In this document: positions 7,171 through 24,324 of the stretch, one piece after another
Position numbering within the stretch: the first letter of the stretch is position 1
Layout of the letters: each line of letters opens with the position of its first letter
Source of the DNA: a virus
Lineage: Duplodnaviria > Heunggongvirae > Uroviricota > Caudoviricetes
Length of the DNA: 31,211 nt
Direction: 5' to 3' (one strand)
IMG/VR virus record: IMGVR_UViG_2737471829_000009
Made by a program: the position numbers and the translations under genes
Notes under the pieces: generated by a model
The model's input: the letters and a program-made list of their open reading frames with translations, nothing else
Database searches by the model: none
Told to the model about the DNA's origin: nothing

Positions 7171-8877
7171 TTAATACCCCACCGCTTGCCAATATACTGG
7201 AAACGAACCAGAGCCCGCTTCAATACGAAAGGATGTTTTTGTAATAGAGCCTATACGGAAGTTCTGATCGTAGCCGTTATGCCCCGTAACCTCTGTAACG
7301 GTAATGCTGTTACAGACATTAGGGAATGCGGTAGGAAAATTCACTGCTCTGTTGAAGCCAGGCGCTAACCCCCATTGGATCATAAATCCTGTACTGGCAT
7401 CTTTAAACCATCCGTTTGCAGCCTTTCCTGCTGCGTTTTTAAGTTGATAGCGCGCATCAGATTCGGCTTTTGTATAAGCCTGTCCCGCAGGGGTATAACT
7501 GCCTTTCGGCTGAAAGGCTCCGCTTGCCCATGCTTCGGTTGCCAGTTGCACCACGGCATTACTGGCAGTGTGGCGCATATAGGGTTTGGCGACATTACCT
7601 GAGTTAAAGCCAGCGGTAACGCATCCATCCTGAGAAATAGATCCAATCTCAGCCGGAGTGGGCTTATTTGCCCCGTCGTATTGTTTTGTCCAGGCAGACC
7701 AGACACTCCCATACAGCGTCCTGATATAACTCCGTGAGTTGTTATAAACACGGTAAATTTGAGTTATCCCGGCGTGTTTATACACTTCCAGAGAACCAGC
7801 CAGTGCTTCTGGATAATTCTTCCCGGCCAGCGCCTGTGCGTTATTTGGCTGATAATAGAGACCGGGTACGGTGTATGAGTTCAGGTCAAGAGCATTCCCG
7901 ATACCCACCGCCTGACCGTTGAAAATATCCTGTGCGGTCACACTGATATCAGCGCTCAGCGAGTGGCCATTCACTTTGCGGCCTGAGGGTACACGTCCGC
8001 TGGCGTTGTCATTTGCCGCCTTAACCGCTTTCGGGGTCGCAGCAAGCACCTCTGATACGCTGTCGGTGGCGCTACTGAGCTGGACAATCCCCTTCTGTGC
8101 CGTGGTCGCGTCCTGAGCCGTGTATTTACCTTTCGCAAGGTCATGTGCCGCCTTGACTGCTTTCGGCGTCGCGGCGAGAGTCTCAGACACACTGTCGGTG
8201 GCGCTACTGAGCTGGACAATCCCTTTCTGCGTCGTGGTCGCGTCCTGAGCCGTGTATTTTCCTTTCGCAAGGTCATACACCACTTTGACCGCTTTCGGTG
8301 TTGCTGCGAGCGCCTCAGACGTGCTGTCGGTCGCACTGCTTAACTGCGTGAACCCTTTTTCTTTCAGCGTGGCGTCAGGATGGCGGCGGGACTGCTCATG
8401 CTCTGCGAGTTTATCGTCAACATAATCCTGCGTCGCCATAACCAGTGTCGTATCGATAGACAGCTCGACGGTGTCGATATCGCTCACCATGATCACCATG
8501 CGCAGCGTCTGCGCGCGACCTGACCCTTCCGCCAGTTCGGGCTTGTAGCTCTCCGCCATGTTACCGACCGCAATCAGCGTGCCGGTGTCGTCGTATAGAC
8601 CCATTTCACGCAGCCAGAAACCGCCGGTCTCCGGGGGGATCACCAGCTCCGCCACGACATAATTTTTATGTTTTTTGTCCTGGCTGATTTTGTTCAGGGC
8701 ATGACGCCAGACCTCATTGACGAGTTTTGTCTGACTGGCGTCCGGCTCGGGCAGCTTACCGCCACCGTCCCCGACGGCCATCTCCGCAAAATTGACTTTC
8801 TTCCCGTTCGGGAGCGTCGCCGCCGCCAGTTTTTCTGCACCGGCTCGGGTGATAACGGTTTTATATTTCACTGTCAT
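7171..8877 (-). CDS. H: Tail fibre protein
   Basis: 568-aa protein with a conserved gpH-like N-terminus (MTVKYKTVITRAGAEKLAAATL...), internal tandem fibre repeats and a divergent C-terminal receptor-binding region. Confidence 0.85.
   Translation of the reverse strand: MTVKYKTVITRAGAEKLAAATLPNGKKVNFAEMAVGDGGGKLPEPDASQTKLVNEVWRHALNKISQDKKHKNYVVAELVIPPETGGFWLREMGLYDDTGTLIAVGNMAESYKPELAEGSGRAQTLRMVIMVSDIDTVELSIDTTLVMATQDYVDDKLAEHEQSRRHPDATLKEKGFTQLSSATDSTSEALAATPKAVKVVYDLAKGKYTAQDATTTQKGIVQLSSATDSVSETLAATPKAVKAAHDLAKGKYTAQDATTAQKGIVQLSSATDSVSEVLAATPKAVKAANDNASGRVPSGRKVNGHSLSADISVTAQDIFNGQAVGIGNALDLNSYTVPGLYYQPNNAQALAGKNYPEALAGSLEVYKHAGITQIYRVYNNSRSYIRTLYGSVWSAWTKQYDGANKPTPAEIGSISQDGCVTAGFNSGNVAKPYMRHTASNAVVQLATEAWASGAFQPKGSYTPAGQAYTKAESDARYQLKNAAGKAANGWFKDASTGFMIQWGLAPGFNRAVNFPTAFPNVCNSITVTEVTGHNGYDQNFRIGSITKTSFRIEAGSGSFPVYWQAVGY
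8040..8385 (-). repeat. Three tandem 132-bp (44-aa) repeat units inside the tail fibre gene
   Basis: Near-identical DNA copies (TGTCGGTGGCGCTACTGAGCTGGACAATCCC...) begin at about 8061, 8193 and 8325; they encode LSSATDS.SE.LAATPKAVK...KGKYTAQDATT.QKGIVQ. Confidence 0.7.
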
Positions 8878-11314: not shown

Positions 11315-11738
11315 GGGGAAAGGATGCCGCCGGGCAAGGCCAACGGCAATCGGGCGGGGTTTTGTTAGCTATGAAACAACAACTATCCACTAAGGCATAC
11401 GATCTTATCCAGACTTGGCAGTTTTGATGGGGATGAAAGCAGAACGAAGCTGTGAACAATACACAAAAAGTTGAAACTCATAGTTTTAACAATTATTATC
11501 GCAAAACCAATCGATACGAGTTAATCTAACAAATATTGATTCATGTTAATTTATGTCGTCATACCCACCTAAGGTAATAACACAGATGCTTACAACACCA
11601 ATAAATAACATTGAAGAAGCCTATTAAAATGATTAAATTAAAAAATTATTATTCAAGCATGTATGTTCATGTTTGAAACTCAGCACTTTTGAAAAATAGA
11701 CATTGGACGAAGTTTGGTTAGTAAAAGAGAGGTTAACT

Positions 11739-13370
11739 ATGACAAACAATCCTTTTGTAGATTTTATTGAATTTCTAACTAATAAACATGGCGAAGAAGT
11801 TTGGGTTACTGTTTACAAGACGGAAGAGATCAAGAACACTGATCATGACGGCGGGATGTATTGTGCATTAGTCAGCAAAGAAAAAACTGAAAAAGCAATG
11901 AATCAGGCTGGTTGGGATTTGATGATTGGTAGTGGTGGACCTGGTATTTGCACATCATATCAAGATGGGAAAAGCATAAATACATATTATAAAAATTCAG
12001 ATAATGGTTTTCTCAGGCTTATTCTTGTTCGTGATTTCCATGGTAGAAAAGAAAAATATATAGAGATCCTTGAAGAGTTTCGTCTTTTTCACAATTTATA
12101 TTATGATAATAAAAGTGGTTCATACTTTAGCTTTGATGACTCCGGTGATGAAATCGAAGTAATCAAAGTGCAAAGCAATGAGGTAAAAATCCGTAGGAGA
12201 TATCTACATTCTTTTATGGCCGCCAGTCAAATGAATCTCCTTCTTTATTTTGAGTTAACGAGACACTATAATCATAATTTGACCTTTGCATGCAATGAAA
12301 AAAACGAATCAACCATATACACTATTTATTCAGGGAAATCTTACTCAAAAGGATATATATCTTTCTCAAGAATCATGGGAAAAAAAATAATTAAATGTGA
12401 GTCAATAGACAAGTGTAACTCATGGCCATTTGAATCAAAAAAAACATATCAAGAATTTATTATAGGTGGCGACACTGACGAACCAATAACTTTTTCATGC
12501 AATCCGGATAAATTAGCTAATTATTTTGGTGCCAACCCAGAAGCCCCGCATTATTTGACTCCTGTGTTTTTTAAAAAGGAAGTAATGCAAAAATATTACA
12601 ATTCCTCTGACTATAGTATTACCGATGGGCATCTTTATAGAAAAGGTGCATGGGATCTTCGATTCGATAATAACTCACCTAATCATATATCAGTTTTCTT
12701 AGGTGATCTTGGCAGGGATTTACCTGAGAAAGAACAAATTTACTGGAAAAGTTTTAATTTAATCCCTGACGGTAGAAAAATTAGCAAAACAAATTTTGAG
12801 CGTAGTTTTTTAGGGCGTGTCTCCGACGCAGAAAACCCTGAGCATAAATTTAAAAATAAATTCAAATCACTACAGAAATACTGGAGCAATCGGTATAAAT
12901 GGGATCTATTCCTACCTTTATCCGAGAAAGATGAGCATTTTTTCAACTCATTAAGATCAATGCTTACGAAGGAGCAGTCGGAATTTGACGCACAGGTATT
13001 GGCGTTAACGAAAGTCACTATTGATTCAATTAATGTTAAATCTCTTAGAAATCACCTCAAAGTTACTGATGCAAGCATAAAATCAATAGGGTTAATGGAG
13101 AGTCTTCTTGATAGATTACACTCGCCAAACACATCAACACTAGTAAGTCTTATGCGAGGTATTCAATCAGTAAGATCCACCGGCGTTGCACATAGAAAAG
13201 GTACTGACTACGAAAAAACAATGTCAAAGCTGAATATTAACCATGATGATTATCAGAGAGAATTTGATCAATTACTATTGGGCATGGTTTTTCTATTTGA
13301 AGAAATAATGCGATTGGATGCTGAGAAAGGTGATGAAAAAACCGAGTCAACTACTGATAAACAATTGTAG
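11739..13370 (+). CDS. Hypothetical AT-rich cargo protein (543 aa) with a C-terminal HEPN-like R-x5-H motif; candidate abortive-infection/defence effector
   Basis: Only long plus-strand ORF in the late region, AT-rich with A/T-rich codon usage. Start trimmed from the track's TTG (11703) to the ATG at 11739, which has an AAGAGAGG RBS. C-terminus contains VRSTGVAHRKG; the rest of the protein has no motif I recognise. Confidence 0.75.
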   Translation: MTNNPFVDFIEFLTNKHGEEVWVTVYKTEEIKNTDHDGGMYCALVSKEKTEKAMNQAGWDLMIGSGGPGICTSYQDGKSINTYYKNSDNGFLRLILVRDFHGRKEKYIEILEEFRLFHNLYYDNKSGSYFSFDDSGDEIEVIKVQSNEVKIRRRYLHSFMAASQMNLLLYFELTRHYNHNLTFACNEKNESTIYTIYSGKSYSKGYISFSRIMGKKIIKCESIDKCNSWPFESKKTYQEFIIGGDTDEPITFSCNPDKLANYFGANPEAPHYLTPVFFKKEVMQKYYNSSDYSITDGHLYRKGAWDLRFDNNSPNHISVFLGDLGRDLPEKEQIYWKSFNLIPDGRKISKTNFERSFLGRVSDAENPEHKFKNKFKSLQKYWSNRYKWDLFLPLSEKDEHFFNSLRSMLTKEQSEFDAQVLALTKVTIDSINVKSLRNHLKVTDASIKSIGLMESLLDRLHSPNTSTLVSLMRGIQSVRSTGVAHRKGTDYEKTMSKLNINHDDYQREFDQLLLGMVFLFEEIMRLDAEKGDEKTESTTDKQL

Positions 13371-13451
13371 AAATAAGATTACCTCAACGTATTTTTGCAT
13401 TAGATAAATAAGCACTCACACACTTTAAACTCATAAAAACATATTAAATAG

Positions 13452-13471
13452 CGCCCTAACAAAATAGGGCG
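13452..13471. terminator. Hairpin between convergent genes (cargo ORF and S)
   Basis: CGCCCTA-ACAAAA-TAGGGCG (7-bp stem) in the 119-bp gap; the flank is A/T-rich on the minus strand, consistent with termination of the S-containing late operon. No strong T-run on the plus strand. Confidence 0.4.
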
Positions 13472-13489
13472 TCACTTAATCAGCTAATT

Positions 13490-22544: not shown

Positions 22545-22551
22545 ATTTAAA

Positions 22552-22577
22552 AGCCATCATAGATGGCTTTTTTTTTC
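22552..22577 (+). terminator. Rho-independent terminator after Q (probably bidirectional)
   Basis: AGCCATC-ATA-GATGGCT hairpin followed by a T9 run on the plus strand, 8 nt after the Q stop; it sits between convergent Q and the cargo operon. Confidence 0.65.
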
Positions 22578-23184
22578 AGAAGCCATAGTAATGAAATCTT
22601 AATAGACTTATTATCTTTTCGGCATCACTTACTTCAGAGGAAGGAGCAGATATATTATTTGCATGTCTCGCACCCTTATGGGCTACGGAACCTCTTCTTG
22701 TGCCATAGCTATCTAAGCTTGTTAAGAGAATTGGATCAATTGAACTTTCATCAAAACCGCAAAATAATGCCAACGGTATAAATGAACCTTTTTTAATCCC
22801 ATTGTTTTTCTTAACTTTCAATTCCGCACAATTTATTATCTTTAAGACCGCAGTCTTGAAATCGGTATCATCGAAAGGTTTTGTTATTGAGAGAATCTCG
22901 TCAACCTGATATGCTATTGCTAGTATATTTTTAAAATAAATCGTATTGTAACCATTAGCCACAACATCGTTTTTAATTTTACTTAACATTTCTATCGCTT
23001 TAGCTTCTATATACTCCTCAAGCTCGGCATGAACCAATAATCTATAAGCAGCAATGTTGAGAGTATCAAAATTATAGCCAATAGGATCATTGGCTTCATT
23101 CTTTAACTGTCGATTCATATATTTGCGCTTTAATTTATTGACTCTTTTAGTCATATCATTAAAGAGCTTACTTGCTTTTGGCAT
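22576..23184 (-). CDS. Hypothetical small cargo protein (202 aa) with a HEPN-like R-x5-H motif; putative effector partner of the DUF262 protein
   Basis: AT-rich ORF whose ATG directly abuts the upstream stop (TAA-ATG), with an AGAAGGA RBS. Lys-rich N-terminus; C-terminal TRRGSVAHKGARH motif. Confidence 0.7.
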   Translation of the reverse strand: MPKASKLFNDMTKRVNKLKRKYMNRQLKNEANDPIGYNFDTLNIAAYRLLVHAELEEYIEAKAIEMLSKIKNDVVANGYNTIYFKNILAIAYQVDEILSITKPFDDTDFKTAVLKIINCAELKVKKNNGIKKGSFIPLALFCGFDESSIDPILLTSLDSYGTRRGSVAHKGARHANNISAPSSEVSDAEKIISLLRFHYYGF

Positions 23185-24324
23185 TTACAAGATCCTTCTT
23201 GTATTTCCATCATACTGCATACCCAAAACATGCGCCAAAGAGCGTCCCCACATATCGATTCGAGTATGTGTTGCGAACGTTGTTTTTGGGGTTTTTTCGA
23301 CGGAATCACGATAATCTTGATCCATACAGAGATCTTTGAAAGCATCCTCTACAGCAGAAGCATTTTGCAATGCTGCCTGTGAAACATTCTGGTCGCTAAA
23401 GAATCGAGCAATACAATCAAAAATAGCTCTATTAATCACTCTTTCGTATTTTGTTCCAAGCCATTTTTTAAATGAATTGTCACCAAAAATTTGTACTGTA
23501 GTATCTAAGGCTAGATTTAAAGAATTTAGAGCATCAACGACTTCTTGCTGATAATTAAGCCATCCCTTCTCATAAAACTCTACAATTTCATCAAGGAACT
23601 CTTTGAAGTTACCACGGTACTCTTCTACACGCTTATTATACGCAATGAAACGTAATACAAGCTCAGAGTCACGCATTCTTTTATCAAGTGATTGACCAAA
23701 GAGAGCATGAAACTGATTGCTTTGAGATAAATATGTTTCTATCTCATCAAGGAGTTTACCACCAATAAGTGCTTTACGCAGTTCTTGAGGCGAAAGAGGA
23801 AGGCTACCACTGTTTAATCTGTAGAATATCGCATAAAGGAAGTTTTCGTCTTGCCAACTTCTTATCACTGTTGACCGCAAGGTGCTGTTATCGAGATACT
23901 CACGATCTTCACTTGGGAGTTCGCTATATTTCTGCCCATTAAGCTCTGGTCTAATATCTAAACCTTTAAGTTTAAAATCGTCAGCCAAAAATTCATTAAT
24001 TGCCATAAGCCTCTGCTTTCCGTCAATTACAATGAATCGTCCTCTATGATCTTTTTGTTCAGCAAGTACAATATTTGGTACTGGCATACCCACAATAATA
24101 GATTCAATTAATCTGCTTTTGCGCTTATCGTCCCAAGCACCACGTCTTTGAAAGCTGGGCTGAAGATCAATATTTCCTTTTCTTATCTGGCTATCAATCG
24201 TTTCAATTGTCCAATCTGCATTCATTACCACAGATTCTTTAAATGAAATTGAAGTATTTAAATCATCTTCATCTTCTTGCTGATTATCAGGGATTTGTAG
24301 TTCATATTGATCAATATTAGACAT
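23185..24324 (-). CDS. DUF262 (ParB/Srx-like NTPase-nuclease domain) protein, 379 aa
   Basis: AT-rich ORF with a GAGGTG RBS. N-terminal LQPSFQRRGAWDDKRKSRLIESIIVGMPVPNIVL...FIVIDGKQRLMAINEF matches the DUF262 signature (FQR...W, DGQQR-type motif) as I recall it. No HNH/DUF1524-like motif in the C-terminal half. Confidence 0.75.
   Translation of the reverse strand: MSNIDQYELQIPDNQQEDEDDLNTSISFKESVVMNADWTIETIDSQIRKGNIDLQPSFQRRGAWDDKRKSRLIESIIVGMPVPNIVLAEQKDHRGRFIVIDGKQRLMAINEFLADDFKLKGLDIRPELNGQKYSELPSEDREYLDNSTLRSTVIRSWQDENFLYAIFYRLNSGSLPLSPQELRKALIGGKLLDEIETYLSQSNQFHALFGQSLDKRMRDSELVLRFIAYNKRVEEYRGNFKEFLDEIVEFYEKGWLNYQQEVVDALNSLNLALDTTVQIFGDNSFKKWLGTKYERVINRAIFDCIARFFSDQNVSQAALQNASAVEDAFKDLCMDQDYRDSVEKTPKTTFATHTRIDMWGRSLAHVLGMQYDGNTRRIL

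Follow-up and report, generated by a model that had tools for sequence, protein, structure and literature searches.

HEPN-type motifs in two cargo islands of a P2-like prophage of Escherichia coli

The viral sequence IMGVR_UViG_2737471829_000009 of IMG/VR (31,211 nucleotides, nt; hereafter the window, meaning the whole stretch of DNA that was analyzed) is a P2-like prophage of Escherichia coli that carries two cargo islands. Island A consists of a single gene coding for a 543-amino acid (aa) protein, and island B of a DUF262 gene followed by a gene coding for a 202-aa protein. A first-pass annotation had noticed that the 543-aa and 202-aa proteins both have, close to their C-termini, an arginine followed by Val-Ala-His and a basic residue, and had suggested that the two use the same HEPN-type catalytic module or that the two islands share an ancestor. 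The question raised by this locus is, then, whether the common motif is a sign of kinship or whether the same active-site signature is present twice. Our results indicate that the motif is the R-x4-6-H catalytic signature of HEPN ribonucleases (RNases) and that the two proteins carry it independently, any kinship between them being no closer than the superfamily. The reading of the whole locus that we regard as probable is that of a P2-like prophage with two foreign cargo islands, one with a PD-T4-2-type pair (island B) and the other with a protein that joins a sensor to a divergent HEPN RNase (island A).

The motif in the two proteins

The flagged span of the 543-aa protein (window positions 13170-13200) encodes VRSTGVAHRK and lies within the peptide SLMRGIQSVRSTGVAHRKGTDY, which is encoded at 13146-13211 on the plus strand, inside the open reading frame (ORF) 11739-13370. 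The corresponding peptide of the 202-aa protein, SLDSYGTRRGSVAHKGARH, is encoded at 22719-22663 on the minus strand, inside ORF 22576-23184. Both motif peptides, RSTGVAH and RGSVAH, were found at the positions that the first-pass annotation had given for them (Table 1). The pattern that it had drawn through the two proteins, [ST]L...R..[GS]VAH[RK], survived in part. When the register was checked, the [GS]VAH[RK] portion lined up between both proteins, but the invariant arginine did not, because five residues separate R479 from H485 in the 543-aa protein and four separate R164 from H169 in the 202-aa protein; R163, which would restore the longer spacing, is variable. Moreover, the "SL" of the pattern is offset by two residues between the proteins and is not conserved.

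Taken as a resemblance of one sequence to another, the match is no better than chance. The two proteins have 25 tripeptides in common, against a mean of 21.9 for shuffled sequences, and the best ungapped segment that runs through VAH has a score of 20, with a better best segment in 500 of 500 shuffled pairs. A pentapeptide, VSDAE, is also common to both (window 12822-12836 and 22615-22629); it falls in unrelated regions, is longer than VAH and is not significant, and it shows the ease with which short matches arise.

The motif matters because it is conserved within each family, where it is among the best-conserved positions. Over 263 members of the family of the 543-aa protein (family A), H485 is present in 263, R479 in 260 and S480 in 253; the spacing varies inside the family, since nine of the 263 members lack the serine after the arginine and so have R-x4-H. 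An alignment of 145 sequences, extending down to 29% identity, has D398, D417, N432, R479, S480, H485 and K487 as the C-terminal positions that are at least 95% identical; at the same level of conservation, the N-terminal positions are R98, K215, D310, D323 and E332. A homologue from Poribacteria with 31% identity retains LRSSGSAHRKG. In the family of the 202-aa protein (family B; 18 sequences down to 26% identity), G161, R164, G165, A168 and H169 are invariant, and R163 varies. The first-pass annotation had named the conservation of the arginine and the histidine as a check, and in both families it was borne out. The motif of family A has the R-x4-6-H form that characterizes the HEPN superfamily. 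That both proteins have Val-Ala before the histidine and a basic residue behind it is best put down to coincidence within a constrained active-site turn.

HEPN assignment of the 202-aa and 543-aa proteins

For the 202-aa protein, the assignment comes from its relatives. The Pfam family HEPN_RiboL-PSP was matched by 17 of the 18 members of family B, with a best E-value of 5e-7; for six homologues a PF18735 annotation had been precomputed, and NCBI gives one the name "HEPN domain-containing protein". By these family matches, the 202-aa protein is classed as a RiboL-PSP-type HEPN protein. Its 379-aa partner matched Pfam GmrSD_N (1.1e-26, residues 47-187) as well as the PADLOC profiles NsnA (2.9e-76) and PD-T4-2_A (8.9e-39, residues 27-340). 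The TAA stop codon of the DUF262 gene immediately precedes the ATG of the 202-aa gene. A DUF262 gene adjoins a gene of the 202-aa type here and at four other loci. Pectobacterium and Pantoea have the pair in P2/186-like prophages, with gpA on one side and the portal gene on the other, and an unrelated metagenome contig has it as well.

The 543-aa protein belongs to a much larger family, with at least 2,244 relatives in 90%-identity clusters and 1,256 representatives at 50% identity. The protein itself had no match in Pfam, NCBIfam, PADLOC or PHROGs, and no names or Pfam domains were found among the 2,244 homologues; the UniRef label of one member, P0083, reads "ApeA N-terminal domain-containing protein". 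A profile search of family A against PDB sequences gave nothing credible, and neither did the same search with family B. An exhaustive hmmsearch with the C-terminal profile of family A returned 1,256 matches, and the 150 listed were proteins of the same architecture or fragments; a homologue search seeded with the Poribacteria protein returned unannotated proteins only.

The predicted structure of the 543-aa protein was more informative. In an AlphaFold2 model of the full-length protein (predicted local distance difference test score, pLDDT, of 85.8), about residues 1-340 make up a beta-rich N-terminal half and the C-terminal domain is all-helical; when residues 341-543 were modeled on their own (pLDDT 85.4), the same helices were obtained. 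These are helix 1 (residues 367-386), helix 2 (413-427), which holds D417, a helical insert (433-459), helix 3 (465 to 482 or 484) and helix 4 (505-536). In both models, the R479/H485 motif is found at the end of the long helix 3 and the start of the loop that follows. By definition, a HEPN domain has its motif where helix 3 ends, an acidic residue on helix 2, and inserts in the stretch that joins these two helices. The predicted C-terminal domain has this layout, with the R479/H485 motif closing helix 3, D417 on helix 2 and the insert at 433-459 separating them. Structure searches with the models pointed in the same direction. When the C-terminal domain was searched against 48,164 chains, nine of the 60 matches listed were bona fide HEPN proteins, aligned over 91-121 residues; eight of these nine are single-domain proteins of 119-143 residues, which were aligned over the greater part of their length. 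Csx1-Crn2, HepT and LsoA were among the matches of the full-length model. We take these structural matches, which depend on predicted models, as good evidence for a divergent HEPN domain, though short of proof.

The N-terminal half resembled a single solved structure among the matches, that of SeAvs3, and this match vanished when the C-terminal domain was searched alone. The nucleases Cap4 and HamA were absent among the matches listed in either search, which suggests that the part of Avs3 that was matched is probably not the nuclease.

Several observations weigh against our reading of the two islands. The evidence for the fold of the 543-aa protein consists of AlphaFold2 models and includes no solved structure, and the grouping of D417 with R479 and H485 relies on the placement of helices in these models. 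Neither a HEPN model nor any other of Pfam, NCBIfam or PADLOC matched the 543-aa protein, 45 of its relatives (35 + 10, the ten being distant representatives), its isolated halves or P0083, even at E-values up to 10. The residue that follows the arginine, Ser480, is polar but is not the usual one, as the HEPN rule calls for a polar residue, usually N, D or H, directly after the arginine (PMC3710099). The nearly invariant charged residues of the N-terminal half (R98, K215, D310, D323 and E332) mean that this half could itself be catalytic. As to the firm assignment of island B, the 202-aa protein of the window scored 22.0 bits against HEPN_RiboL-PSP (E=1.7e-4), under the 28.4-bit cut-off, and its match to PADLOC PD-T4-2_B was weak (E=0.0025, 15.8 bits) and confined to residues 152-196, that is, 45 residues around the motif. 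Finally, the link of both islands to defense in this prophage is a predicted one.

Two alternatives have to be weighed for the 543-aa protein. One holds that a true HEPN domain is present in island B only and that the 543-aa protein has in its C-terminal domain a helical bundle of a generic kind, which would use the arginine and the histidine for ligand binding, oligomerization or some other chemistry and would resemble HEPN proteins by coincidence. We think this unlikely. The near-absolute conservation of the arginine, serine and histidine over 263 members speaks against it. So does the layout of the domain, in which the motif falls exactly where helix 3 ends, helix 2 bears a conserved acidic residue and a helical insert separates the two helices. 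HEPN domains are also strongly over-represented among the structural matches, and the mobile, phage-cargo setting is typical of HEPN toxins. The other alternative, which we find more improbable still, is that the effector is the N-terminal half, for instance a divergent nuclease like the N-terminal effector of Avs3, with the HEPN-like domain serving as a regulator or as a second effector. SeAvs3, which resembles this half, is indeed an anti-phage protein with an N-terminal nuclease effector, and the charged residues of the N-terminal half are conserved at 95% or more. However, Cap4 and HamA, which share the fold of the Avs3 effector, were absent among the matches listed; there is no conserved PD-(D/E)xK motif, the E-x-K at residues 148-150 being variable; and the N-terminal domain is mostly beta-strand, like the non-catalytic ApeA-NTD1 (PMC3710099). 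Judging from the models, the 543-aa protein most likely has a divergent HEPN RNase as its C-terminal domain, while its N-terminal half most likely serves in sensing or regulation. An active site of the HEPN type is very probably present in both proteins, that of the 202-aa protein being of a known kind and that of the 543-aa protein being predicted and new as a family.

How might the two islands work? For island A, we infer RNase activity, dimerization, a trigger and a role in defense as follows. The protein would be a single-chain sensor-effector, in which the N-terminal domain restrains the C-terminal HEPN RNase until infection is sensed. The active site predicted from the models would consist of R479 and H485 at the end of the third core helix, completed by D417 on the second. 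By analogy with the single-chain HEPN defense proteins ApeA, DARNA and PrrC/RloC, the protein may dimerize through its HEPN domain, and a cue of infection perceived by the N-terminal domain could lead to the cutting of host RNA, probably tRNA, and so abort infection by competing phages. In island B, the DUF262/ParB-like protein is probably a sensor that binds DNA or nucleotides, and its gene is probably translationally coupled to the HEPN gene through the TAA-ATG junction. The 202-aa HEPN protein would be the RNase effector, acting through R164 and H169 under the control of the ParB-like sensor.

Relationship and genomic setting of the two islands

BLASTP between the 543-aa and the 202-aa proteins gave no alignment at the motif. 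Alignment of the whole-family profiles with hhalign gave a probability of 0.13%, with three columns aligned (VAH only); three C-terminal cuts, compared in local, low-mact and global modes, gave 0.2% or less, and a broader profile of family A, built from 145 sequences, gave 0.4%. The pairwise and profile-profile alignment of the C-terminal regions that the first-pass annotation had proposed as a check was, therefore, without significant similarity. At the DNA level there was no similarity between the islands, the best match having an E-value of 0.055 over 17 nt. The island architectures also differ, a single 543-aa gene in one case and an operon of DUF262 and 202-aa genes in the other. Because the profile comparison was negative and the islands have no DNA in common, the sequences place the relationship of the two proteins no closer than the HEPN superfamily, in which families typically have little in common beyond the motif (PMC3710099). 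The suggestion that both proteins use the same HEPN-type module thus holds at the level of the superfamily, as the arginine and histidine are conserved in each family and family B matches HEPN_RiboL-PSP, but it does not extend to any closer kinship. That the islands have a recent common ancestor, or that a module bearing the motif was exchanged between them, is highly improbable and is contradicted at the available sensitivity: the identical VAH with its following basic residue, the low guanine plus cytosine (GC) content of both islands (0.34-0.37) and their constant presence together in the 11 E. coli genomes with the 543-aa gene would speak for it, but their co-occurrence is explained by one prophage lineage, the Arg-His spacing differs, the BLASTP, hhalign and DNA comparisons were negative, family A is found in several phyla without the DUF262 pair whereas family B is nearly confined to P2-like prophages of Enterobacterales, and the two islands lie in separate, long-known P2 slots.

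The identity of the prophage and of these slots follows from its relatives. Over a 17-kb stretch, the window has 99.7% identity with prophages that occur in 11 of 5,426 complete genomes of E. coli. In one of them, E. coli S42, the counterpart sits between pflB and pflA, with the integrase on the pflA side (flanks at positions 1-182 and 31736-32533 of locus L001), and its RefSeq annotation comprises the full P2 set: late control D, tape measure, sheath and tube, baseplate V-W-J-I, S, R, lysis genes, capsid, terminase, portal, replication endonuclease, Cox and integrase. The GC content of the backbone is 0.56 and drops to 0.34-0.37 in two stretches, 11315-13489 and 22545-24324. By the S42 annotation, island A lies between the baseplate gene V and the tail-completion (virion-morphogenesis) gene S, and the DUF262 pair of island B lies between the portal gene Q and the gene for the replication endonuclease, A. 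The V-S slot is where phage P2 has orf30 and the Q-A slot is where it has tin/old, two of the three classical P2 moron regions (PMC6823313). The A-Q region is an established hotspot for anti-phage systems of P2-like phages (PMC9122126; PMC9519451), and the systems described by Vassallo et al. include some recovered from the P2 gpA-portal hotspot (PMC9519451). The V-S (orf30) slot is not treated as a defense hotspot in the two main studies of P2 hotspots. A sibling prophage in E. coli T-HYM1, 94% identical, has other cargo in both slots, which indicates that both are exchangeable. Its V-S slot (locus L005, 3316-4651; window 11315-13489) holds an unrelated, unannotated 309-aa gene, and its tin/old slot (L005, 13373-16044) holds an NsnB/AriA-like ABC ATPase with DUF3696 (PADLOC NsnB, 4.4e-55) and an unannotated 370-aa partner.

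The 543-aa gene is oriented opposite to both flanking genes, V and S, and has a GC content of 0.34; a promoter-like site in its leader (11471-11499, TTGAAA-17-TATTAT, 10 of 12 positions) is a consensus match only. Family A occurs, with no DUF262 pair, in Proteobacteria, Cyanobacteria, Poribacteria and Gemmatimonadota. In Pseudomonas, in Xanthomonas and in a cyanobacterium, its homologues are solo genes that adjoin integrases or transposases and have no conserved neighbor, and the gene was not found among 50,697 phage records. With a homologue in the cyanobacterium Leptolyngbya, the protein of the E. coli prophage has 71% identity, with one in Formivibrio 72-73% and with one in Raoultella 76% (P0020, P0014 and P0004). 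This unusually high identity across phyla points to a recent horizontal spread of the low-GC 543-aa gene.

Two further observations concern the surroundings of the islands and of the pair. On the metagenome contig with the distant DUF262-HEPN pair (27% identity), a DUF4145 protein (locus L010, 1586-2254) is encoded three genes upstream; DUF4145 is another HEPN family (PMC3710099), and its proximity to the pair suggests a small defense cluster. The tail-fiber ORF at 7171-8877 is a single 568-aa frame in the window and is annotated in S42 (L001, 7672-9378) as a pseudogene fragment and a "pyocin knob domain" protein. The GC content falls to 0.49 at this ORF, which suggests that the fiber tip is probably another exchanged module.

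Table 1. Positions of the main features of islands A and B in the window
Feature	Position	Strand	Basis
Low-GC leader of island A, with sigma-70-like sites and Shine-Dalgarno AGAGAGG 7 nt upstream of ATG	11315..11738	+	GC 0.36
Gene of island A, coding for the 543-aa protein, whose large family lacks annotation (WP_052318713.1 in E. coli S42); opposite in direction to V and S	11739..13370	+	ORF, translation, RefSeq
N-terminal beta-rich half, about residues 1-340, probable sensor/regulatory domain	11739..12758	+	
C-terminal all-helical domain, about residues 350-536, read as HEPN-like bundle	12786..13346	+	
R479-S-T-G-V-A-H485, R-x5-H motif of the 543-aa protein (flagged site)	13173..13193	+	Translation, family conservation
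Palindromic hairpin with T-runs on both strands, between portal and HEPN genes, probable bidirectional terminator	22549..22571	.	Terminator scan, consensus match only
Island B gene 2, 202-aa RiboL-PSP-type HEPN protein	22576..23184	-	Pfam, family matches
R164-G-S-V-A-H169, R-x4-H motif of the 202-aa protein	22678..22695	-	Translation, family conservation
Island B gene 1, 379-aa DUF262/ParB-like (GmrSD_N) protein, probable sensor	23185..24324	-	Pfam, PADLOC

The motif that raised the question is, then, the usual signature of HEPN proteins, and island B, for its part, is related to a system with demonstrated defense against T4. What interest the locus has, which we judge to be moderate, lies in island A rather than in the motif that the two proteins have in common. 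As a useful by-product of this analysis, a large family that is without annotation in Pfam, NCBIfam or PADLOC has gained a testable prediction drawn from structural models: its members would be RNases with R479 and H485 as catalytic residues and a sensor domain related to part of Avs3. A bolder proposal, which we put forward as a tentative possibility short of being probable, is that the 543-aa protein founds an undescribed and widespread single-gene anti-phage family, in which a divergent HEPN RNase is joined to a new beta-rich sensor that has otherwise been seen in Avs3 alone, and that the V-S slot is a third defense hotspot of P2-like phages beside tin/old and Z/fun. If island A were confirmed, it would add a single-gene HEPN defense family; it would also mean that the third P2 cargo slot (orf30) carries immunity genes, and the slot would be a simple anchor for finding more of them.

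Comparison with known defense systems

Among known single-gene systems, the 543-aa protein is most readily compared with ApeA, a single-gene abortive-infection tRNA anticodon nuclease that is activated by deoxydinucleotides. The comparison is one of how the proteins may work. ApeA-NTD1 is a region of about 300 aa, mostly of beta strands with conserved aromatic residues, fused to a HEPN domain (PMC3710099); the 543-aa protein, likewise the product of one gene carried by mobile elements, combines an N-terminal region of similar size (about 300 aa) that is mostly beta, with conserved aromatics, and a C-terminal predicted HEPN domain with inserts. HepT is the closest solved minimal HEPN protein for both. 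In contrast, the description of the solved ApeA proteins (2026 preprint) gives them three domains and a mainly alpha-helical structure. No match to the Pfam families HEPN_Apea or ApeA_NTD1 or to PADLOC ApeA was found in the window protein, in P0083, P0317 and P0103 or in the Poribacteria homologue. A genome scan for PCC7424_5050, the example protein of ApeA-NTD1, with a cyanobacterial member of family A as seed, yielded two loci only. As the links consist of the architecture and of one UniRef name, with no profile match, we do not claim membership of ApeA for the 543-aa protein.

DARNA is a HEPN tRNase of 456 aa that is activated by SSB-bound single-stranded DNA and has an N-terminal HEPN domain (residues 1-159) and a C-terminal helical domain. 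As a single-chain HEPN defense protein from E. coli mobile elements, it is a plausible mechanistic analogue of the 543-aa protein; it was rejected as its identity, since the order of the domains is opposite and DARNA has no beta-rich domain. SeAvs3, an antiviral STAND NTPase (PDB 8dgc), is only 11-13% identical, and the 543-aa protein lacks the STAND ATPase, the TPR array and the Cap4 nuclease signature.

Island B has a DUF262/ParB-like N-terminal protein or domain in common with Menshen and with GmrSD/BrxU, and differs from both in that a HEPN protein occupies the position of the effector. Menshen (NsnABC) was not retained as its identity: an NsnA-like protein is present, but the island has two genes only, and the ABC ATPase NsnB and NsnC are absent. 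GmrSD/BrxU was also set aside, as island B has GmrSD_N only and no DUF1524 nuclease domain. The description of the RiboL-PSP-HEPN family (PF18735) fits better. An "operon with ParB" was noted for this family in 2013 by Anantharaman et al. (PMC3710099), and family B keeps R-x4-H and stands in an operon with a ParB-like (DUF262) gene, as in that description; it differs in that the 202-aa protein of the window is under the gathering score and in that there is no fusion to an L-PSP endoribonuclease.

The closest counterpart of island B is PD-T4-2, a pair of DUF262 and PF18735 HEPN proteins from ECOR65 that was selected for defense against T4 (Vassallo et al. 2022; PMC10952713). The two have the same gene content and order, DUF262/GmrSD_N and then a small RiboL-PSP-type HEPN protein, and island B likewise lies in the gpA-portal hotspot; moreover, its DUF262 protein matches PD-T4-2_A. 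Conversely, the HEPN partner matches PD-T4-2_B weakly, and the DUF262 protein scores higher against NsnA of Menshen, which makes island B a diverged relative of PD-T4-2. From these sequence comparisons, we conclude that island B is probably not the same system but a diverged defense pair of the PD-T4-2 type, with a predicted protective activity.

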